This document shows, piece after piece, positions 1 to 11,040 of a DNA stretch of 28,861 nt (the stretch's first letter is position 1; every line of letters starts with the position of its first letter). The stretch is from a virus (lineage: Duplodnaviria; Heunggongvirae; Uroviricota; Caudoviricetes). A program made the translations under genes and the position numbers. The notes under the pieces were generated by a model that worked only from the letters and a program-made list of their open reading frames with translations, was not told the DNA's origin and did not search any database. The stretch lies in IMG/VR virus record IMGVR_UViG_2695420523_000005; one strand, 5' to 3'.

Positions 1-575
<575 letters not shown>

Positions 576-588
576 CCTTGATCTCCTG

Positions 589-912
589 TTATTGCAGTCC
601 ATTTTTTACGCCATACGCGGCTAACCCCAAAAGCAGTGCGGTAATAATGAACGACGTTATTTTAGAAACAATGCCGCCAAAGAACCCACTTGAGATGGAA
701 TCTAACCGGTTAAGGAGTTTGTCCAGGTTGGAGTGTTGAATACTATGTTGCGCCGGGGTCATATCACCAAAGTAGGTTTTCAGCTGATCGTTGACCTCCT
801 GGCCAATTTCTTCACGTAGCTCTTTACCTAATTTGCCAACAACCTCCCGAGCAACGATCGCGGCAATACGCTCAACTTGCTCTGTTGTAACGCCCGCCAT
901 CTCGTTCGACAT
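589..912 (-). CDS. Small tail-anchored membrane protein (soluble charged N-terminal part, single C-terminal TM helix); candidate non-canonical holin / lysis-associated protein
   Basis: ORF-track ORF 589..924. ATG at 912 is preceded by GGAGG (plus 916..920 region); hydrophobic stretch ITSFIITALLLGLAAYGV near the C-terminus; sits immediately upstream of the 33..575 gene. Confidence 0.5.
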   Translation of the reverse strand: MSNEMAGVTTEQVERIAAIVAREVVGKLGKELREEIGQEVNDQLKTYFGDMTPAQHSIQHSNLDKLLNRLDSISSGFFGGIVSKITSFIITALLLGLAAYGVKNGLQ

Positions 913-993
913 GTTTTCCTCCATGAAAAGTCAAATCGGGATGGCGGATTTATATCACATTTCACCCTTTTGTTGTAGGTGTGTACTTACCTA

Positions 994-1227
994 TCATTCA
1001 GCATTGCAACGGACTGATGAGAAAGCACCTACTCCTACCCATCGCCAGTTATAGATGCTACCCGCTTTGTATAAGGTATAGTTGTTCACTTTTTTAACAG
1101 CATATATGGGTATGACTGTCTCCTGTCCACCAATGATAGCCTCACCGTAACATATAGGTGTCGGCAATTTCTGGCAGCCAGTAAGAGAGAGAACAACAGC
1201 TATTGTTAGAAATAATCTTTTCATCAT
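994..1227 (-). CDS. Small lipoprotein (signal peptide + lipobox LTGC); Cor/Llp-like receptor-blocking superinfection-exclusion candidate
   Basis: 77 aa, N-terminus MMKRLFLTIAVVLSLTGC is a textbook lipoprotein signal with cysteine at +1. Size and position distal to the tail fiber genes match Cor (phi80/N15/T1/HK022) and Llp (T5). Assignment is by architecture, not sequence identity. Confidence 0.6.
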   Translation of the reverse strand: MMKRLFLTIAVVLSLTGCQKLPTPICYGEAIIGGQETVIPIYAVKKVNNYTLYKAGSIYNWRWVGVGAFSSVRCNAE

Positions 1228-1234
1228 TTACTCA

Positions 1235-1843
1235 TCAGTTATACAGATTTCTATTTATTACCGGTACTCTGCCATTTACGCTAAAACTATGGCCGCCATT
1301 AAGTTGGTTTACGAATATCGAGCTAACAGTATTTCCATATGCCGCATATCCATAAACCATTGTCATGGCTCCGCCCGGTACTGGAACAGCGGACACATTC
1401 GCATATGTTGGGATTATCGCTGGAGGGTAATCAAAAACATGCCCTCCAGAGCTGTTCCACTCCGTATTATTAAGAAAGGTAAATGAAAGTGGGATATTTG
1501 CCGTATTATAGATTTCCTCCCCTTGTGCATTGAAAAAACTCATGCCCCAAGTTTCTTTTTTGGCTATACCTTTCGAAAATACGTATATCGTGGCACTAGA
1601 GTCGCTACCCCGACCTCCGAAACTGTAAATCACCTGGTTATTACGCACTATTCTGTTGGCTATTAATGAAACAGCTTTCGAATAGGCAACAAAAATCATC
1701 GGTGAACGATCTGGAGATATTTGGGTGTTAAACTCTGTCCCGCCAGACAAAGAAACAACCTGCTTTCTCTGAAAAACGATAGGAGACAAAGAAGGAGACA
1801 TCCAGACCTTCCCGTCAGATCGATATATCTTGCTTCCGTACAT
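1235..1843 (-). CDS. Hypothetical protein (Gly/Ser/Asn-rich, probably beta-rich); candidate adhesin, fiber accessory protein or moron
   Basis: 202-aa ORF; ATG at 1843..1841 overlaps the upstream stop (TAATG); no SD; region visibly AT-richer than the tail genes. Confidence 0.55.
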   Translation of the reverse strand: MYGSKIYRSDGKVWMSPSLSPIVFQRKQVVSLSGGTEFNTQISPDRSPMIFVAYSKAVSLIANRIVRNNQVIYSFGGRGSDSSATIYVFSKGIAKKETWGMSFFNAQGEEIYNTANIPLSFTFLNNTEWNSSGGHVFDYPPAIIPTYANVSAVPVPGGAMTMVYGYAAYGNTVSSIFVNQLNGGHSFSVNGRVPVINRNLYN

Positions 1844-2097
1844 TATTTTTGAAAAACCAATATGTTTAAATTGCCACTAGCTCCAGACCACGAAATGGTA
1901 TTTCCAGAAACCGTAAGACTTGTGTATTTTCCATTGGTTACGTCCATTATGTAATAGTCGATTCCCAATCCCGCCTCAACCTCATATGTTCTACTTCCTG
2001 AACCAGAGGGAGTAAAATAATCGAGGTAATAAACAGGGGCCAACGCATCGACCATCTCCTGTCTTGATGGCGACCAAACCTGTGCACCATAGCTCAT
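1843..2097 (-). CDS. Hypothetical protein; translationally coupled to, or frameshift-split from, the downstream 202-aa ORF
   Basis: 84-aa ORF; ATG at 2097 with AAGGA about 8 nt upstream; stop TAA at 1845..1843 overlaps the next start. Confidence 0.5.
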   Translation of the reverse strand: MSYGAQVWSPSRQEMVDALAPVYYLDYFTPSGSGSRTYEVEAGLGIDYYIMDVTNGKYTSLTVSGNTISWSGASGNLNILVFQK

Positions 2098-2117
2098 AAA
2101 TATATCCTTATAACTGC

Positions 2118-2150
2118 GGTTGTGAGGCCATATTTATCGACCTCACAACC
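2118..2150 (-). promoter_or_regulatory. Stem-loop between the tail fiber stop and the 84-aa ORF
   Basis: 10-bp perfect stem ggttgtgagg/cctcacaacc with a 13-nt loop; followed by SD AAGGA and ATG 2097. Confidence 0.45.
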
Positions 2151-2187
2151 ATCTTATAAATTATCCTTATTAGAAATAATGTCTAAA

Positions 2188-5100
2188 TCAGTTGCTTGTT
2201 GCCCCAACAGTACCGGCAAATTTCAGCCATTGACCTGACGGACTTCTATTACTACGGTAGTGATAAACGAGGATTGCGTTTGTCACTCCACCGTAGTCAG
2301 CTTTATGTGACGTTGTTAAACGAATTGTATAATCACCGTTAGGTAGATTAAAAACTTCGATTATAGATTCTGCTAATTCTACAGCACCAAATCCCGTTAT
2401 ATTGTTGATACTGCCAGCATTGAATCCCATAGCATCGCCAAAGCCAATCCAATAACTTTTGCTAAATGCCCCATTTGATTTAAGGTGGCTAATGAATGTG
2501 GACAAACTCATGCCCATATCCCCACCAGAAACAGAGGAAGTTCGCACAGTCATGCTTGGAAGAGAACTACTCTTCACATAGGAACTGAGAAGGTTTGTTA
2601 CCTCTGTTTTCGTATAAGCATTAAGGTTAGCCGCAGTCAAAGTTATATCGGCAGAGCCATCAAACGCCACACCTGCAATTTTCCTTGCTGTCTGCAATTT
2701 TGTGGCGGTTGCGGCATTACCAGTAGTGTTCTGATTACCAGTTGTATTCACACCAGGGATTGAATCCTTAGCGGTATATACCTGCGCCCACGCTGACCAT
2801 GCTGCACCTGTGTTATCTCTTCGTGAGCGAATGAAAACTGGCGCATGTGCACCGCTCGTACCACTCCAGCCAATAAGCAACTCGCCTTCACCAGCAGCAC
2901 TCGCACCTTTCATGTGCAATACGTTGCCATACGTGGTCGGGTAGCTATTGTTGTACGCCTCATACATTTGAATGCCAGCAGTGCCTTGAGTAGAGCCGCT
3001 TAACGCCGTAACTCGGCCACGAGATACCAATGTATTAATATTGATATCGCCTGAACCATCAAACTTAACACCATTGATGTTTCTCGCTGTTTGCAACTTC
3101 GTAGCTGTTGAAGCATTACCGTTCAAACTACCATTTACGCCACCAGTCACATTTAGTCCATTACCAATTGATACAGCACCGCTGGTATTATTAATTGTAA
3201 TAGGTCGCAAACCGTTCCATGAACCTAATGTGTCTCCTGATGCTGTTAGCAGGAAATATGTGTTCACCCCATCATTACGGATAAAGAACCCAAACTTACC
3301 GTAAGCAATGCGGAAACCATTTGCATATTTTGAAACGATCTCACCAGAAGACGTTAACCCTCCAGATAATGTGCCACCTGAAAGCGGTAATGCTCCTACA
3401 TCAGAAGCTGTTGGTTTGTTTTTAGTGTTATACGCTCTGCGCCATCCTGGTGAATAGGTCGTCCCGTTAAACACATAGACAAACTCCGCATTAGTGAGTG
3501 CGCCAGAGACACCTGTCGTTGTTGCCGTTGTTATACGAATCGTATAATTGTTCGAGCTACTGCCTTTATTAAATACCTCAATAACTGCGCCAGCCAGTGG
3601 AATAATGCCGCATCCTGTTTCGCTGTCTGGTATGGATGCACTATTTGCATACGCCCAGGCACAACGCGCTATCCATGTCTTTGCATTAAAAGCACCATTA
3701 TCTCGTAGCAGAGTCACTAATTGCTCTGTTGTTATTGAAGCTCCATTATCACCTGTTTCAAGCCAACCAGTAGGAGATGCCGGGCAACCTATATTTGCTG
3801 GCGACAAGGCAATATTTGCCGAGCCGTCAAACGACACCCCATTGATAGTACGCGCAGTCTGCAACTTCGTAGCAGTAGCCGCGTTGCCCGTTGTGTTCTG
3901 ATTACCAGTCGTATTAACACCTGGCAAATTAATATTCGCAGTACCATCAAAGCTCACGCCGCCGATAGTTCTTGCCGTCTGAAGTTTCGTAGCAGTTGCA
4001 GCATTACCAGTGGTGTTCTGATTACCCGTAGTGTTTACACCTGGAAGGTTAATATTTGCAGAACCGTCGAAAACAACTCCACCGATAGATCTTGCCGTCT
4101 GCAATTTCGTGGCTGTACTTGCATTACCATTCAATGAACCAGTTAATCCACCTGTAACAGACAACGGACCTGAAACTGTTCCTCCGGTTGTTGGCAGTGC
4201 TCCAATATCTAACGGCGTCGGTTTCTGATGTGTGCTATACATCGTATAAACAACACCATCGGTAACGCTGGAAGGCTTACTCGCTGAATATGTTGGCGAT
4301 GTATAAATAGAAACTGTCGCATTTGCAGTACAATCCCAATGGATATTTACACGAGTCGCATAATTGCCAATCTCAACGTAAATATCATATGTATCGCCGG
4401 ATGTGTTGATCCAGGCGAAATTCGTTAATCCGACAGCTGTACGCTTCCACAAAGCACCTGTAATCCCTTTGGGGTTTCCATTGCCTGCTCGTAGAACCAG
4501 TTCTGAAATGCCTGCCTGATGTGGGGAGCCGACGTTGTAACCAGCGCCACCAATCAATGCGATGTAAACGATGGAACTCGCTTGTGGCATGGTAACCGTA
4601 GCCAGTTTGAACCACCCTGCCCCGCCAGAGAAAGACATCGTTACTGAATTTAAAGTACCAATATCTTTCGGCGTTAATTTGATATCCGCAGTCAGTGCTT
4701 TACCGTTAACTTTTCGGTTAGATGGCACCCTGCTATTCGCATTGTCATTGGCTGCTTTAACTGCTTTTGGCGTTGCGGCCAGCGATTCACTGGTGCTGTC
4801 GACAGCACTGCTAAGTTTCACAACACCTTTAGTTGTAAGGCTTGCGTCTTCCATCGCAACTGCACCGGCAATCTCTTCAGCACGATCAGCAGCAGCTTCC
4901 GCACGGGTCGCAGCGGATTCAGCAGCAGTTTTGCTCTGAGATGCTGCCGTCGCACTGCCTGCCGCCTCTGTTGCTTTCGTGGATGCCGTCGTGGCGCTGC
5001 CCTTCGCTGCTGACGCCTGTCTGGTCGCCTCATCTTTTGAAGCAGACGCCGATGATGCCGATGACGCCGCCGAACTGGCGGACGATGCGGCTGCCGTTTT

Positions 5101-6216
5101 TGAGGATTCTGCACGGGTTTCCGACGCTTTCGCGTTCGTTTCGGATGTCTTCGCTGCGGAAGCAGACCTCGCTGCTGCGCTGGCCTGTTCAGTGGCTTGG
5201 CCAGCCTTCGTTGTGGCAGTTGAAGCAGACGATGCGGCACTTTCTGCCGATTTTCCGGCGGCGGTGGCACTGGCTGAGGCCTGCCCGGCACTTGTTGACG
5301 CGGCACTGGCAGACGACGCAGCCGCTGTTTTTGAGCCTGCCGCAGCCGAGGCGCTCTGTCCCGCTGCCGTTTCAGAAGACCTGGCGTTCGTCTCGGACGT
5401 TTTTGCCGCCTTCGCGGAATTTCCTGCCGCCGTTGCCGAGGAAGCGGCATTACTGGCGCTCGAGGCTGCGCTCGTTTCTGATGATTTCGCTGCCTCTTTT
5501 GAGGCCGCCGCATCCCGGGCTGAGGTGGCAGCTTCTGACGCCTTCGTGGTCGCGGTGGATGCAGAAGTGGCTGCAGATTTTTGTGACGCTGCAGCATTCG
5601 TTTCAGATTTTTTCGCAGCAGTTGCACTCGCACTTGCGGCACTTTGTGAGGATGCCGCAGCGGATGCACTTTGAGACGCTTGAGAGGCTTTTTCTCCAGC
5701 GGCATTGGCGCTTTTTGCTGCTGCGGCAGCACTGGCCGCCGCCTCACGAGCTTTGTCGCCAGCAGCATCAATCGCGTCAGTGTTATTTTTATACCACTCA
5801 ACGTTTTCGTTGTGCTCGTTGACGATCTGCATTAGCGGCTTAACGGTCACTTCTGTACCGTCTTCACGCTCGATTGTCACCTCATCCAGCGCAGTCAACC
5901 AACTGCGTATGGACTTGGAATCAGCCGACATACGCGACATTAGCGCAGTAAAGCGCGCGCTAAACTGTGTTAAGTCGCCTTCATAGGTCGTAATGATTCG
6001 GCACGGAACTTCAGACTGAGTTTCGCCGGTATAAGGTTCTGAGAGAACAATGTTCGTATCACTGGTTACGCGCTTGATCTCATACAGCTTATTGTCGGGG
6101 CCAATGACGATCATCCCCGGCAACACACCATTAGCTGTTACGTTCCAGGCTGTCCCTGCCCCAACCAGAGTATTGCTGCCCTGTGTAAATGTGATAGTAC
6201 CTTCCCTGTACCACAT
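2188..6216 (-). CDS. stf: Side tail fiber protein (lambda Stf-like) with Ala/Ser-rich segment, GNAATATKLQTAR-type repeats and duplicated C-terminal tip-like domain
   Basis: 1342-aa ORF; ATG at 6216 with AAGGAG upstream. Residues ~150-450 (KTSETNAAASQKSAATSASTATTKASEAATSARDAAASKEAAKSSET...) closely match the lambda Stf Ala-rich region as I recall it; at least 5 copies of the N(G/T)NA(A/S)TATKLQTAR motif. Confidence 0.9.
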   Translation of the reverse strand: MWYREGTITFTQGSNTLVGAGTAWNVTANGVLPGMIVIGPDNKLYEIKRVTSDTNIVLSEPYTGETQSEVPCRIITTYEGDLTQFSARFTALMSRMSADSKSIRSWLTALDEVTIEREDGTEVTVKPLMQIVNEHNENVEWYKNNTDAIDAAGDKAREAAASAAAAAKSANAAGEKASQASQSASAAASSQSAASASATAAKKSETNAAASQKSAATSASTATTKASEAATSARDAAASKEAAKSSETSAASSASNAASSATAAGNSAKAAKTSETNARSSETAAGQSASAAAGSKTAAASSASAASTSAGQASASATAAGKSAESAASSASTATTKAGQATEQASAAARSASAAKTSETNAKASETRAESSKTAAASSASSAASSASSASASKDEATRQASAAKGSATTASTKATEAAGSATAASQSKTAAESAATRAEAAADRAEEIAGAVAMEDASLTTKGVVKLSSAVDSTSESLAATPKAVKAANDNANSRVPSNRKVNGKALTADIKLTPKDIGTLNSVTMSFSGGAGWFKLATVTMPQASSIVYIALIGGAGYNVGSPHQAGISELVLRAGNGNPKGITGALWKRTAVGLTNFAWINTSGDTYDIYVEIGNYATRVNIHWDCTANATVSIYTSPTYSASKPSSVTDGVVYTMYSTHQKPTPLDIGALPTTGGTVSGPLSVTGGLTGSLNGNASTATKLQTARSIGGVVFDGSANINLPGVNTTGNQNTTGNAATATKLQTARTIGGVSFDGTANINLPGVNTTGNQNTTGNAATATKLQTARTINGVSFDGSANIALSPANIGCPASPTGWLETGDNGASITTEQLVTLLRDNGAFNAKTWIARCAWAYANSASIPDSETGCGIIPLAGAVIEVFNKGSSSNNYTIRITTATTTGVSGALTNAEFVYVFNGTTYSPGWRRAYNTKNKPTASDVGALPLSGGTLSGGLTSSGEIVSKYANGFRIAYGKFGFFIRNDGVNTYFLLTASGDTLGSWNGLRPITINNTSGAVSIGNGLNVTGGVNGSLNGNASTATKLQTARNINGVKFDGSGDININTLVSRGRVTALSGSTQGTAGIQMYEAYNNSYPTTYGNVLHMKGASAAGEGELLIGWSGTSGAHAPVFIRSRRDNTGAAWSAWAQVYTAKDSIPGVNTTGNQNTTGNAATATKLQTARKIAGVAFDGSADITLTAANLNAYTKTEVTNLLSSYVKSSSLPSMTVRTSSVSGGDMGMSLSTFISHLKSNGAFSKSYWIGFGDAMGFNAGSINNITGFGAVELAESIIEVFNLPNGDYTIRLTTSHKADYGGVTNAILVYHYRSNRSPSGQWLKFAGTVGATSN
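3821..4141 (-). repeat. Three tandem ~120-bp coding repeats in the tail fiber gene, with related copies at ~2668..2760 and ~3051..3133
   Basis: Repeated block ...accatcaaa..acgcc..gatag....gccgtctgcaa.ttcgtagc.gt.gc.gcattacc.gt.gtgttctgattacc.gt.gt.tt.acacctgg... read directly; encodes the GNAATATKLQTAR motif. Confidence 0.8.
4867..5769 (-). repeat. Low-complexity Ala/Ser/Thr-rich coding segment of the tail fiber
   Basis: Protein residues ~150-450 are almost exclusively A/S/T/K/E; this creates long spurious ORFs in other frames on both strands. Confidence 0.85.
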
Positions 6217-6237
6217 GTTGAATATGCTCCTTGATTT

Positions 6238-6258
6238 GGCGGGCTATCCTTGCCCGCC
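6238..6258 (-). promoter_or_regulatory. GC-rich stem-loop between J and the tail fiber with AAGGAUA loop
   Basis: Perfect 7-bp stem ggcgggc/gcccgcc, loop tatcctt; followed on the minus strand by the SD AAGGAG and the fiber ATG at 6216. Confidence 0.5.
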
Positions 6259-6260
6259 AT

Positions 6261-6279
6261 TAAGTAGATACTTACCTAT
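6261..6279. promoter_or_regulatory. Junction motif taagtagatacttacctat between J and the tail fiber
   Basis: Contains the palindrome taagta ga tactta and the TACTTACCTAT core shared with 985..997. Confidence 0.35.
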
Positions 6280-6309
6280 TTTTACCGATATAAAATTTTT
6301 TTTCCACCA

Positions 6310-9300
6310 TCACAGACGGCCAATTCTTACTCGTAAGACGTTGTTATCGTCATAAACGTCAATCCGCTGACCATTTATAACCAATCGCCCATTGCCGCCG
6401 CTATTACCGTTGATCTCAAGCGTTCCATTTTTGCCGAACCGCCATCCAGATCTACCGCTAACAAAATTGGTAGATTGCAGATCGCCTACTTTTGCATTGG
6501 TGATTGTGCCATCCTTGATATACGCTCCATTCATATAGGCGATACTGTTTTCGATAACAAATGGCGTTGTGATCTTCCCGTTAACAGAGTTGACCAAACC
6601 AAACCTGTCCGCCTGAACCAAAAACTGAGATAGCCCAGTGGTGTCAATACCAAGCGCAATACCGGCAACATACTTCTGCCCTCCGCTCGTTGAAGTCTCC
6701 ATTTTCAACGTCCACGCGGTTGACACTTTTTTGTTGGTATCAGCAATAGCTGTTGCCTGCTGTTGAATTGTCGCGGTATTTCCATTCACCTCTGCTTTCA
6801 GAGTATCGATTCGCCCACTCAGAGCATTATCTGCCTGCGTTCTCGCTTTCGTTTCAGTTGTGACCGCCGCGGAAATGTTGGCTGCCGTTTGAGACTCTAA
6901 GTTTGTGATTTGAGTCGCCAATGCAGCATCTTGCTCTGTACGCGTTTTCGTTTCGGTTGCTACAGCCGCTTTAATATCCTCTTTGTATTGAGAGGTCAGC
7001 TTGGTGATCTGAGACGACAACGCCGAGTCAGCATCAGTTCGAGCCTGCGTTTCAACTGCAACGGCCGCACTAATATCTTTCGCTGTCTGTGCTTTTAAAC
7101 TTGAAACCTCTTTTGTTAAAGCGGTATCACCATCTGCACGAGCCGTTGTTTCTCTGGCAAGAGACGCCTTGAGATCATTAGCTTTTGCTGTAAGAGACGT
7201 AATCTGGGTAGACAATGCACTATCGGCATCAGTCCTTGCTTTTGTCTCTACAGCAACCGCTGCGGCAATATCAGTTCCGGTTTGTGCTCGCAGGCTGTTA
7301 ATTTCTCGTGAGAGCGCCTGGTCAGCACTTGCTCTGGCCTCCTGCTCCTGAGTGATGGCAGCGGATATATCACCGTCAACCTTTGACTGAAGCTGGTTTA
7401 TTTGTTTGGCTAACGCAGAGTCCCCGCTTGCTCGGGCCTCCTGCTCACTGCGTATTGCAGCAGAAATATCATCATCAACCTTTGCCTGAAGTTGGGTGAT
7501 CTGGCTTGCCAGAGCCGAATCTTCCGTTGCTCGGGCTTCTTGCTCTTCCTTAATAGCTGCGACGATATCGTTGCTTACTTTCGACTCAAGCTGAGTGATT
7601 TGTGTCGTCAGAGCTTCATCGGCAGATGTACGAGCCTCCTGCTCTGTACTAATCGCCGCGCTGATATCTCCTTCAAACTTAGATTGCAGCTGAGTGACAC
7701 GCTTTGCCAACGCTTCATCGCCATCGGCACGAGCGGTGGACTCTTCCAGAATACTGGCCTTAATGTCTTCGCCAATTTCTACGCGAATTTCCTCAACCTT
7801 CGTGGCCATTGCAGACATATCATCAGCAAAGGTTTTCTGTGTTGTTGCGATCTTCGCGTTATTGACCATCTGCTTGTGCTGGTCTTCATCTTGACGAAGA
7901 GCCAGGTCAATATTTGTTTTGGCCAAAGCCTCAATGTTCGTAGTCAGTTCTGCACTGGCACGATCGACCTCTGCAACCGTCTTTTTCATTTCTTCAACGG
8001 CAGCGGAGCTTTCCTCTACCGTTGACTGTAACACTTCCAGTTGTTTAGCGTTTGCAGCATCACCTTCAACACGAGCCTCGCTTTCCTTAGCAATAAGAGC
8101 CGCCGCTTCATCTCTTGCAGCCTTTATTGCCTCGACTGTATTAGCGAGAGCTTTATCGTGTTCAGATACGGTGTTTTCGATTTCAACAATTGCAGCATCA
8201 GTAGCATCAATTTTTTCAAACGCTTCATTGACCTTGTTAATCGTTGCCGAAACCTCACCTTTAAGCTCGGTTTGTGCGTTCTCCAAAGCATCGCTACGCT
8301 CGTTGAATTTTATTTCAAAACCCGCGAGGTTATCGCTGAACTGCTTATCTAATTCAGCTATATCTTCCTTAACGTCGTTTACCGCCCCCTCTAAAGATTC
8401 GACGCTCTGGTTGATATGCTCATTTAACTCGTCAACTGCTTCTTGAGAGACTTTGCTGTTGATGTCCTCAAGCAGAGCCTGACCAAGCTCGGAAGATGTA
8501 ATTTTGCCAGTCAGGAACGACAGTACATCGCGAGTTGTCGCCTCTGTACCCAAGTTTGAGTTCGGAGGACTTAACATACCTCGCTTGTTCGATGCTCGAA
8601 CCCAGTAATACCACGTTTCGCTATCCCCAAGACCAGCATGTGTAAAGGTGGTGCTTGCAGACTCTGCGATCAGTTTCGCCGTATCCAGATTGTTGGTCTG
8701 GGATGCGTAAACATTAATGTGATCAAGGTCTACCGAATCTGGATTAACCCAATTCAGTATCACATTACGATAGTCTCCAACGGCCGTTAATGACGTTGGG
8801 GCATCAGGCGGTGTCATTGTGCCCAACACCTGATAAACGGTACTGATAATCTCTGTTTTTTTACCGTTGAATGAAACCGCATACAGCTGGAAGTCGTAGC
8901 GTCCATTCTCCGCGACATTAACGATTTCGTATTGCTCTTCGGTTACACGCGCCGATTGCCAGTTCGATACATTGTTTTCATCAGAACGTCGCCAACTGAT
9001 CCAATACTCTGGAGATTTCCCTTCCCATGTTGCAGTCAGTTTTACTGACAGGTTGCCCGGGCTTGAGAGATAAGTCCCTTCAGTGATTTGCAGATTAGAT
9101 GGCTTGGAGTAAGTTGGGTCCAATACCGTCGTATTCTGCGGGATCAGCGTTGCACCATTGTCGATTGCCTCATATTTAGACGGATTGTTCTCAACAGCGG
9201 TGATGTCAAAGCTACCCGACGTTTCCCCCTGTGCGATGTTAACGATGCGAACGCGCATAGGTTCGAGATCTGATTCTGTAATTGTCCAGACACCGTTCAA

Positions 9301-11040
9301 AACAGGCGTTTCCGCTGACGACAGGGCTTTTGAAAACGTAACCTTTGTTATGTTTTCGCCAGTTTCAAGAACATCGCGTTCAACGATTTTGCCTTCCTGA
9401 TTCAATATCCGAATAAAGCTGCCGCTTTTAGCTAACGACACAGGCGCATCGAGAGTGATGCTGTTTTTGGTAAACTCCACAATTCGACCGGAGTTACGTT
9501 TACCTGCACGATATTTGTTCTGAATCAGAACGGTTTCACCAGGCATCAGAAATGAGGCGTCTAAGCCGGCAGTAAATGTAATTACATCCGACTCCATTCT
9601 GGCGGTATACAACAGCCACAAACCAACTCGGTGAGCCTGGCCTCGGCTTGTACATCCAAATGCTACGACTTCTGTTTTACGCTCACCATAACGGCGCATT
9701 GCGTCCTGATCTTCAACGTACTCGATATTTTGCTTATAACCGTCCTCCTTGTTGTTGTAGGTTACGAGCGCAACGGATGGGCGATCTTTACGCGCAGAAC
9801 CTTTATAGGTAAACAGCCCATCTTTGACGTTGGAGTTGGTAAACATCATTACCGGATCTGATGGGCTATCCTGCATGATGTTAACCATGCCACCAGCCCA
9901 AAACACCATGCCGCGGAATGCACCGGCAATATCCTGAATTAATCGGTATGCGTCTTGTCGACTGGTGATCTGCGTATTGATTGCAAAGCGTTTCTCTTTA
10001 CCCCCAAAGCCATCATCGACCTCTTCGTCACAATATCGACCAATCTGGTAGAGCTGGCCGAGGTCAATCATGGATTCCGACACAAATTGCCCAAGACCAT
10101 ACCGAGTATTGGTAAGCAAATCGTAGAGAATCCACGCAGGGTTTGAAGAAGACAACAGCTTAAAAGTACCGTCCCATACGCCGACATAAGTATTGGTGTA
10201 TTCGTTGTAGTTTGACGGTACTCGGATTTTGATACCGCGCACCAAATACGAACGGGAAGGCATTGTGCTACCAAACTGCTCTGAATTGACCTTCAAGCCA
10301 ACAAGAGCAGAGTTAGGGTAGTTCATTGGCGTGTCGACAATCTCACCGATGGAATCAACCCATGTGTCGTTGTAGAGGTACTGGCTACTATTATCATCTG
10401 TAAGACGAATCACCCTAACCTTGTATGCACGACCAGGCTTAGGCAGTTTCAGCTCATAGCTACGGTAATACACGCCGGTTTTCTTTGCCGTTAGCGTGAT
10501 ATCAACGCTTTTCTCACCTTCTGCCACTACATCAGAAAATGTTGCGTCTGCGTTGGCGATCTGGAATTTGTACTTCACCGTAGTGCCATTTGTATCGCCA
10601 GAGCTTTTATCAACGCTACGTAAAGAGGGGAATTTCATGATGACACGAACGCGATCAGCTTCATCGTTATCGATTGAAACCGTAACGTCGTGTGTTTTTT
10701 TAAGCTGAATATTTACGGACTTAGGCGTTTCAACAAAATCAAAACCAGCCATTGGCGTCTGGTCTTGTGAGCCGTCACGAAAATCCCATGTAATACCGCT
10801 GAAGTTGGAAGAGCCATCTTCATTCAAGATCGGTAAATCGTCGATGAAGATCGACTTTGCGCCATTTACCAGGCCACCGATAACCCCCTCGCCAAGAAGG
10901 TCGAGGATGGCTGCCATAGCACGAGAATTGACAGTATCATCAGCTTCAACCGGGGTACGGCTGGAGCTTTTACTTTTCTTGCCACCAGCACCGGCAATAA
11001 GAAGCGGTAATTTTTTCTTCTTGAACTGTTCCATGTCCAA
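6310..11040 (-). CDS. J: Tail tip attachment / host specificity protein J homolog with ~450-aa tandem-repeat insert and short non-lambda C-terminus
   Basis: 1576-aa ORF. Recalled lambda J blocks are conserved (NSALVGLKVNSEQFGS, AFGCTSRGQAHRVGLWL, GQKYVAGIALG...SQFLVQADR). The track start at 11040 is TTG; first ATG is at 11034; AAGGA lies just upstream. Confidence 0.92.
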   Translation of the reverse strand: MDMEQFKKKKLPLLIAGAGGKKSKSSSRTPVEADDTVNSRAMAAILDLLGEGVIGGLVNGAKSIFIDDLPILNEDGSSNFSGITWDFRDGSQDQTPMAGFDFVETPKSVNIQLKKTHDVTVSIDNDEADRVRVIMKFPSLRSVDKSSGDTNGTTVKYKFQIANADATFSDVVAEGEKSVDITLTAKKTGVYYRSYELKLPKPGRAYKVRVIRLTDDNSSQYLYNDTWVDSIGEIVDTPMNYPNSALVGLKVNSEQFGSTMPSRSYLVRGIKIRVPSNYNEYTNTYVGVWDGTFKLLSSSNPAWILYDLLTNTRYGLGQFVSESMIDLGQLYQIGRYCDEEVDDGFGGKEKRFAINTQITSRQDAYRLIQDIAGAFRGMVFWAGGMVNIMQDSPSDPVMMFTNSNVKDGLFTYKGSARKDRPSVALVTYNNKEDGYKQNIEYVEDQDAMRRYGERKTEVVAFGCTSRGQAHRVGLWLLYTARMESDVITFTAGLDASFLMPGETVLIQNKYRAGKRNSGRIVEFTKNSITLDAPVSLAKSGSFIRILNQEGKIVERDVLETGENITKVTFSKALSSAETPVLNGVWTITESDLEPMRVRIVNIAQGETSGSFDITAVENNPSKYEAIDNGATLIPQNTTVLDPTYSKPSNLQITEGTYLSSPGNLSVKLTATWEGKSPEYWISWRRSDENNVSNWQSARVTEEQYEIVNVAENGRYDFQLYAVSFNGKKTEIISTVYQVLGTMTPPDAPTSLTAVGDYRNVILNWVNPDSVDLDHINVYASQTNNLDTAKLIAESASTTFTHAGLGDSETWYYWVRASNKRGMLSPPNSNLGTEATTRDVLSFLTGKITSSELGQALLEDINSKVSQEAVDELNEHINQSVESLEGAVNDVKEDIAELDKQFSDNLAGFEIKFNERSDALENAQTELKGEVSATINKVNEAFEKIDATDAAIVEIENTVSEHDKALANTVEAIKAARDEAAALIAKESEARVEGDAANAKQLEVLQSTVEESSAAVEEMKKTVAEVDRASAELTTNIEALAKTNIDLALRQDEDQHKQMVNNAKIATTQKTFADDMSAMATKVEEIRVEIGEDIKASILEESTARADGDEALAKRVTQLQSKFEGDISAAISTEQEARTSADEALTTQITQLESKVSNDIVAAIKEEQEARATEDSALASQITQLQAKVDDDISAAIRSEQEARASGDSALAKQINQLQSKVDGDISAAITQEQEARASADQALSREINSLRAQTGTDIAAAVAVETKARTDADSALSTQITSLTAKANDLKASLARETTARADGDTALTKEVSSLKAQTAKDISAAVAVETQARTDADSALSSQITKLTSQYKEDIKAAVATETKTRTEQDAALATQITNLESQTAANISAAVTTETKARTQADNALSGRIDTLKAEVNGNTATIQQQATAIADTNKKVSTAWTLKMETSTSGGQKYVAGIALGIDTTGLSQFLVQADRFGLVNSVNGKITTPFVIENSIAYMNGAYIKDGTITNAKVGDLQSTNFVSGRSGWRFGKNGTLEINGNSGGNGRLVINGQRIDVYDDNNVLRVRIGRL
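6790..7760 (-). repeat. About ten tandem 99-bp (33-aa) coding repeats inside the J-like gene
   Basis: Periodicity visible in DNA (gctcgggcctcctgctc-like blocks near 7340, 7440, 7540, 7640) and in protein (DISAAI..EQEARASADEAL..QITQLQSKV repeated). Boundaries approximate. Confidence 0.8.

Follow-up and report, generated by a model that had tools for sequence, protein, structure and literature searches.

The gene at positions 994 to 1227 of the 28,861-nucleotide stretch of DNA analysed here (the window) is, as judged by its sequence, an ordinary Cor-family exclusion lipoprotein gene that is already known and annotated in public records. The window comes from an SSU5-like phage-plasmid of Escherichia coli. 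Taking homology, predicted fold and gene context together, we consider it likely that this gene encodes the Cor-family superinfection-exclusion lipoprotein of the phage-plasmid, and that its product masks the phage's own receptor, most likely FhuA, in the manner of T5 Llp. The genes of the region are as follows:

33..602, minus strand: endolysin gene, truncated to about 161 of 230 codons, cut by IS100
589..924, minus strand: holin gene, 111 aa, immediately downstream of cor, with 99% nucleotide identity to the Cyrano holin gene
994..1227, minus strand: cor, phage exclusion lipoprotein precursor, an ATG-to-stop ORF of 77 aa from the first ATG
1235..1843, minus strand: 202-aa cassette gene, PHROG 425 'membrane associated protein', homologue of phi80 gp23
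1843..2097, minus strand: 84-aa cassette gene, PHROG 557 'outer membrane protein' (E=1.3e-24)
2188..6216, minus strand: long lateral tail-fibre gene, 1342 aa, upstream of the cassette; an ORF with Pfam Gp34_trimer
6310..11040, minus strand: tail-tip protein J (central fibre), 1576 aa, with Pfam FNIII-A_GpJ, Phage-tail_3 and Phage_Tail_Tip

Plasmids of about 110 kb match positions 90 to 6300 of the window at up to 99% identity, and the gene order (J, fibre, cassette, holin, endolysin) is the same in SSU5. Window J is 97% identical to J of the phage-plasmid Cyrano; it shares 31% identity with phi80 J overall and 39% over the last 210 aa, and it ends, at the C-terminus, in a tip domain of the phi80 type. 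In Cyrano and SSU5 the genes corresponding to 2188..6216 are annotated as tail fibre, and the window holin has 96% protein identity to that of SSU5. Searches against Pfam yielded nothing significant for the two cassette partner proteins, the holin or the endolysin, and those against NCBIfam nothing for the two partner proteins. An earlier note on this DNA had placed cor just beyond the tail fibre genes; the region was correct, but the genes at 1843..2097 and 1235..1843 intervene. In SSU5 and in the E. coli plasmid pLAU-OXA1, a phage-plasmid of the same type, cor likewise lies between the tail-fibre genes and the holin. Positions 1 to 92 of the window are the terminal end of IS100 (IS21 family), 100% identical to the sequence that immediately follows istB in NZ_CP066033; about 2,000 plasmids have this end too. 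Unlike in the SSU5 and pLAU-OXA1 relatives, IS100 breaks the endolysin gene, at about positions 90–92 of the window, and because the gene is interrupted after about 161 of its 230 codons, this copy of the phage-plasmid may be defective in lysis.

The full translation of cor from the first ATG is MMKRLFLTIAVVLSLTGCQKLPTPICYGEAIIGGQETVIPIYAVKKVNNYTLYKAGSIYNWRWVGVGAFSSVRCNAE (77 aa), in which three parts were distinguished:

1177..1227, minus strand: lipoprotein signal peptide, residues 1–17, ending in the lipobox L-T-G, read from the sequence
1174..1176, minus strand: codon of Cys18, the predicted lipidated residue 1 of mature Cor, invariant in the family alignments A2 and A3
997..1176, minus strand: mature Cor domain, 60 aa, a predicted small five-stranded beta-barrel with the invariant pair Cys26/Cys74

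The earlier note had described a 77-aa product with a classic lipoprotein signal, and both the ORF and the lipobox (LTG before Cys) are indeed present. At the N-terminus, a basic n-region (KR) and a hydrophobic core precede the lipobox L-T-G-C, with LFLTIAVVLSLTGCQ as the stretch of highest hydrophobicity in the protein. The signal reads MMKRLFLTIAVVLSLTG up to the lipobox Cys, and the +2 residue is Gln, not Asp. A residue other than Asp after the lipobox Cys directs a lipoprotein to the outer membrane, whereas Asp leads to retention in the inner membrane; since Gln follows Cys18, this +2 rule predicts outer-membrane sorting of Cor. The Pfam model LPAM_1 scored 17.3 bits, slightly below its cut-off of 20, and the annotation of phi80 Cor gives the corresponding Cys as the acylated residue. 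Residues Cys26 and Cys74 of the precursor correspond to Cys9 and Cys57 of the mature protein.

The true start of cor is probably the second ATG, at position 1224, which gives a product of 76 aa, because the first ATG is missing in three close relatives, all other Cor family members align from Met2, and the spacing of a GAG motif fits the second ATG better than the first. The ORF list contained no credible alternative ORF overlapping cor, and a search of positions 1 to 2600 against Rfam identified no RNA family. That cor is a genuine gene and not a chance ORF was confirmed by the full-length match to PHROG 1119, the match to NCBIfam NF047972 and a pN/pS of 0.19. Codon 49 (1081..1083) encodes Asn in the window, Asp in 16 of 17 close relatives and Gly in the remaining one, and the stop codon is changed to Trp in three relatives.

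The match to PHROG 1119 ('Cor superinfection exclusion protein') extended over the full length of window Cor (E=2.3e-30). The equivalog model NF047972 ('phage exclusion lipoprotein Cor') scored 82.1 bits (E=2.1e-23) against a curated cut-off of 31 bits, with residues 2–75 aligned to profile positions 1–77 of 78; on the same model phi80 Cor reached 140.9 bits and T1 Cor 55.8, placing window Cor above T1 Cor. A tblastn search with Cor gave 188 phage records, and most of the 60 matches listed carried a cor or exclusion-protein annotation. Window Cor is 59% identical to the Cor-like protein of Salmonella phage SSU5, 58% to Cor of Stx2 phage 86, 49% to HK022 Cor, 44% to ES18 gp32, 43% to phi80 Cor and 28% to T1 Cor. 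The Cor proteins of lambdoid phages and T1 (phi80, HK022, N15, mEp167, ES18, T1) have the same length (75–80 aa), lipobox Cys, Cys pair and motifs as window Cor, and the lambdoid ones, at 43–49% identity, are preceded by the same two partner families. The SSU5 orthologue, SSU5_025, is labelled 'Cor-like protein' in its GenBank record, and the cassette of plasmid pLAU-OXA1, 99.9% identical to that of the window at the DNA level, contains a gene named 'cor: phage exclusion lipoprotein Cor' by PGAP/RefSeq (WP_023908316.1). The earlier note had recognised no identity to Cor and had allowed for a new member of the functional class; both points are superseded by the identities to phi80 and HK022 Cor, by the NF047972 score and by the labels on the SSU5 and pLAU-OXA1 copies, which make the gene a plain Cor homologue.

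The Cor family is small, with only 48 clusters (50% identity) found at E<=0.001 among 1.84 billion representatives, and its named members come from Enterobacterales. A single-sequence homologue search with Cor, which relied on a word index, returned only four matches, and the family was reached only with an alignment query. Across 10 family sequences (alignment A2) and 36 (A3), the lipobox Cys18, Cys26, Ala55 and Gly56 are invariant; Cys74, Gly34, Val64 and Phe69 do not vary in A2 and are nearly invariant in A3, as Trp61, Trp63, Tyr42 and Tyr53 are in the family at large. A three-residue deletion after the lipobox is common to the Cor proteins of the window, SSU5 and Stx2 phage 86, which form a subgroup. 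None of the cassette proteins matched a PADLOC defence model.

A small lipoprotein gene beside a holin and an endolysin could also encode an Rz1-type outer-membrane spanin. Cor is encoded directly upstream of the holin gene, and a weak match to PHROG 456 ('Rz-like spanin', E=0.39) was obtained, but it was not significant and covered only residues 1–24, that is, the signal peptide. All strong matches were to Cor, and in SSU5 and Cyrano the endolysin is followed downstream by Rz/Rz1 genes of their own; for Cyrano, moreover, which has no cassette, induction and virion release have been reported (PMC9928086). A spanin is therefore extremely improbable, and we rejected this assignment on the missing significant spanin profile match and on the position of cor upstream of the holin.

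The predicted fold of Cor points in the same direction as its homology. The AlphaFold model (pLDDT 85.8) has a small Llp-like beta fold with N- and C-terminal cysteines, and when it was compared with 48,164 solved chains, the top two were T5 Llp. A Foldseek search gave no significant match, and the Cor profile run against PDB sequences matched Llp (8a60_B) at a non-significant E=0.66, mostly over the signal peptide. The similarity between Llp and Cor, as far as the model indicates, is structural only and modest. Published work puts the identity of Llp and Cor proteins at about 20% (PMC9586334), and the two have been judged one structural family (bioRxiv 10.64898/2026.03.26.714494). Of the alignments to Cor and Llp proposed in the earlier note, that to Cor succeeded, with 28–49% identity to the HK022, phi80 and T1 proteins, and that to Llp did not (E=0.66), but its central suggestion of a receptor-masking exclusion lipoprotein of the Cor/Llp type is supported by both the homology and the predicted fold.

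T5 Llp offers a mechanistic precedent in the solved structure of its complex with FhuA (PMC9586334). Cys11 and Cys58 of Llp (PDB 8A60, 7QJF) are positionally equivalent to mature Cys9 and Cys57 of window Cor (PMC9586334), and the Cys11–Cys58 disulfide is needed for FhuA binding (bioRxiv 10.64898/2026.03.26.714494; PMC9586334). The llp gene adjoins the receptor-binding gene pb5, unlike window cor, whose neighbours are PHROG 425 and 557 genes and not of the pb5 type; the action of Llp on FhuA is the one expected of window Cor. We infer the lipidation, localisation, disulfide, target identity and expression timing of window Cor as follows. The precursor would be exported, and, by its family and the example of Llp, it would be lipidated on Cys18 and its signal peptide removed. 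The 60-residue beta-barrel, probably stapled by a Cys26–Cys74 disulfide, would bind the periplasmic face of the phage's own TonB-dependent receptor as T5 Llp does on FhuA. The receptor would thereby be locked in a state in which its external loops no longer accept the receptor-binding protein of the phage, as described for FhuA–Llp (PMC9586334). With FhuA as the most likely receptor, progeny virions and FhuA-dependent competitors would be expected no longer to adsorb. The 202-aa protein would probably be the matching terminal receptor-binding protein, so that the cassette would pair a binder with a masker.

Two genes precede cor, which comes last in a conserved, portable three-gene cassette (84 aa, 202 aa, cor). 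PHROG 557 and PHROG 425 are also the families of phi80 gp22 and gp23 and of HK022 gp25 and gp26. The 84-aa protein is a homologue of phi80 gp22, HK022 gp25 and T1 gp32, and is 69% identical to SSU5_023; the 202-aa protein is a homologue of phi80 gp23, HK022 gp26 and T1 gp31 and aligns over its full length with that family. Compared with the phi80 versions, however, the 84-aa and 202-aa proteins are only 27% and 21% identical, and this range of 21–27%, which holds against the partners of FhuA phages, makes them far more diverged from the lambdoid proteins than Cor is. A trio of about 100 aa, about 215 aa and cor follows J in T1, ES18, LAU1, pAEv1818 and ECP1, and the PHROGs and order of the cassette are common to phi80, HK022, T1, ES18 and SSU5, so that window cor stands where a cor gene is expected. 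In the lambdoid phages and T1 the cassette comes directly after J, whereas in the window and SSU5 a long tail-fibre gene lies between them. The 'cor cassette' was described in 2026 from T1, HK022, N15, ES18 and phi80, all of them FhuA-dependent, and was found complete in ten BASEL phages, all FhuA users (PMC13164509).

The 84-aa and 202-aa proteins both lack a signal peptide and any hydrophobic segment. The predicted fold of the 202-aa protein (pLDDT 69.5, moderate) resembles a solved siphophage receptor-binding protein; its profile found no relevant match among PDB sequences. This model makes the 202-aa protein a probable terminal receptor-binding protein, and the 84-aa protein may be its adaptor or partner. 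A receptor-binding role in the virion fits the partner proteins better than the exclusion role suggested for them previously (PMC13164509); the solved receptor-binding structure was released in December 2025 and may have been missing from the search in that study. The cassette is most likely a module of receptor-binder plus receptor-masker, and the likeness of the 202-aa protein to a solved receptor-binding protein supports this reading of the 'cor cassette' over one of three exclusion proteins. An earlier proposal, from the BASEL study, was that a receptor-binding protein and its cognate exclusion protein are encoded together at loci downstream of gpJ (PMC8594841).

The same module logic is seen in Rtp and Oekolampad-type small siphophages (PDB 9RPT, 9RPS; PMC12685063; PMC8594841), in which a receptor-binding protein gene near J is followed by a small lipoprotein gene whose product blocks the same receptor. 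These phages target LptD, and Rtp45 blocks by steric displacement and not by plug-domain allostery (PMC12685063). Their receptor-binding proteins have no sequence similarity to the 202-aa protein of the window, and Rtp45 is, as far as tested, not a Cor-family protein. A cor gene with other neighbours occurs in the short-tailed Stx2-converting phage 86 (L005, 4986..5213), where the gene for the 58% identical Cor adjoins a long tail-fibre gene and a 181-aa ORF that is unrelated, the PHROG 425 and 557 partners being absent; orf22 of this phage was considered as a partner homologue and rejected, since no similarity was found. By eye, the 84-aa and 202-aa proteins of the window start with a similar motif (MSYGAQVWSPS... 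and MYGSKIYRSDGKVW...), and the starts of phi80 gp22 and gp23 are also alike (MAYGIQTWDASGK... and MAEFGAMILMDNGNPF...). From the residues alone, such similar starts may represent a shared docking strand or an ancient duplication.

By analogy, FhuA is the probable, though unproven, target of window Cor. It is the most likely one because in phages whose receptor is known the complete cassette always accompanies FhuA use, and because Cor is 43–49% identical to the Cor proteins of FhuA phages despite the 21–27% identity of the partners. To this extent the suggestion in the earlier note that the gene hints at the receptor is supported, the same cassette accompanying FhuA use elsewhere. It is unlikely, in our judgement, that the same family and mechanism act here on a receptor other than FhuA, in which case the divergent partners would select a different TonB-dependent transporter or outer-membrane protein. 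Such a switch would be consistent with the divergence of the partner proteins, but Cor itself remains close to the phi80 and HK022 proteins and outscores T1 Cor on NF047972. The three-residue deletion shared by window, SSU5 and Stx2-phage-86 Cor could mark a subgroup with another receptor; in T1 Cor, however, which targets FhuA, the spacer behind the lipobox is equally short. The copy in Stx2 phage 86 belongs to a podovirus without the two partner genes, Cor-like proteins are present in BtuB-using phages (PMC13164509), and lipoprotein exclusion has been argued to extend to other TonB-dependent transporters (PMC9586334), whereas the complete cassette is associated with FhuA in every phage of known receptor (PMC13164509). 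For SSU5 itself, use of the LPS core is reported in a review (PMC4138488) that cites Kim et al. (2014). Our literature search found no paper linking SSU5-like phages to FhuA, and the phage-plasmid surveys contained no discussion of cor.

If FhuA is the masked receptor, carriers would resist T1, T5, phi80, colicin M, albomycin and microcin J25 and take up ferrichrome poorly, a predicted resistance that matters for phage therapy and for siderophore-drug conjugates. SSU5-like phage-plasmids are common in clinical E. coli, and the assignment of cor as their exclusion gene fixes the annotation of the window. Beyond this assignment, the added value of the analysis lies in the fold of the 202-aa neighbour, which resembles a receptor-binding protein, and in the natural polymorphism of the cassette, which was delimited as one feature:

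996..2097, no strand assigned: three-gene cassette as a single insertion/deletion unit, from alignment A1 against Cyrano

Phage-plasmid Cyrano (pLF82) is without all three genes, about 45 bp standing in place of window positions ~996..2097 with clean junctions (L006, 9214..9470). In PLSDB the cassette was found in 72 plasmids and the empty-site junction in 67, and among 5,426 complete E. coli genomes 68 had the cassette, always on plasmids. At the cassette site of PhiR41_1 there are two unrelated small ORFs. The cassette proteins of the window share 59–73% identity with those of SSU5 or L030, with SSU5 Cor at only 59%, against 96% and 94% for the neighbouring holin and endolysin. Divergence changes abruptly at the cor stop codon (window 994..2097 versus 33..924, compared with L001 and L030). 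SSU5 and L030 also have an extra gp38-type adhesin gene before the cassette, unlike the window. As far as these comparisons of sequence go, the cassette behaves as an exchangeable, fast-evolving host-range module that is not strictly needed by the element: exchangeable and fast-evolving because of the diverged proteins beside a conserved holin and endolysin and because of its presence or absence, and dispensable because about as many E. coli phage-plasmids are without it as with it while J is 97% identical.

A more speculative extension, which we hold tentatively and think rather doubtful, is that the cassette is a self-contained, exchangeable unit through which a tail tip that is functional without it gains a terminal protein receptor and a masking lipoprotein. 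The 'membrane associated' and 'outer membrane' proteins of T1, phi80 and N15 would then be FhuA-binding proteins, and the versions of the SSU5 group might use another receptor. The FhuA-binding proteins of T1, phi80 and N15 have long been sought and, if this proposal is true, the cassette partners would be these proteins. The natural presence and absence of the cassette provides ready-made strains for the binder-plus-masker idea.

Over 18 natural copies (the window and 17 related viral contigs), the three genes had pN/pS values of 0.19 (cor), 0.10 (202-aa gene) and 0.05 (84-aa gene), and gap-free blastn alignments revealed no indel or frameshift in the three cassette genes of the 17 relatives. 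All three genes are under purifying selection. This selection, together with the intact cor ORF and the retention of the cassette in the 72 PLSDB plasmids and 68 complete genomes, argues against cor being a silent passenger that is not expressed in the plasmid-prophage state and is unused in this copy with its broken endolysin. We consider such a passenger improbable, even though the endolysin is truncated by IS100 at ~90–92, the cassette is absent from 67 related plasmids, and cor is packed tightly behind late genes with no promoter-like site directly upstream. Late expression would still guard progeny from debris, T1 Cor and T5 Llp being known to protect progeny from adsorbing to it (PMC11990801).

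A consensus scan detected no sigma-70-like promoter directly before cor, though one may lie inside the upstream gene, and the promoter and terminator scan gave fewer promoter-like sites than in shuffled sequence. The gap between cor and the upstream 202-aa gene is 7 nt, whereas phi80 cor follows a spacer of ~110 bp and has its own annotated promoter and terminator. In phi80 and HK022 the annotation makes cor a 'moron', a separate transcription unit that the prophage expresses. Because window cor differs from phi80 cor in spacing and promoter, its expression in the lysogen is uncertain; it may be expressed with the late genes, guarding progeny from debris, rather than constitutively in the lysogen.

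Two spacers of the region have features of their own. The spacer between cor and the holin (925..993, minus strand) contains a TGaTATAAA motif that, by eye, resembles an extended -10 element and was not reported by the consensus scan. This motif may be a lysis-gene promoter, because the spacer is conserved in Cyrano, which is without cor. The 90-bp spacer between the fibre and the 84-aa gene (2098..2187) has an imperfect hairpin at 2106..2127 and two weak promoter-like sites on the minus strand, and part of it is conserved in Cyrano.
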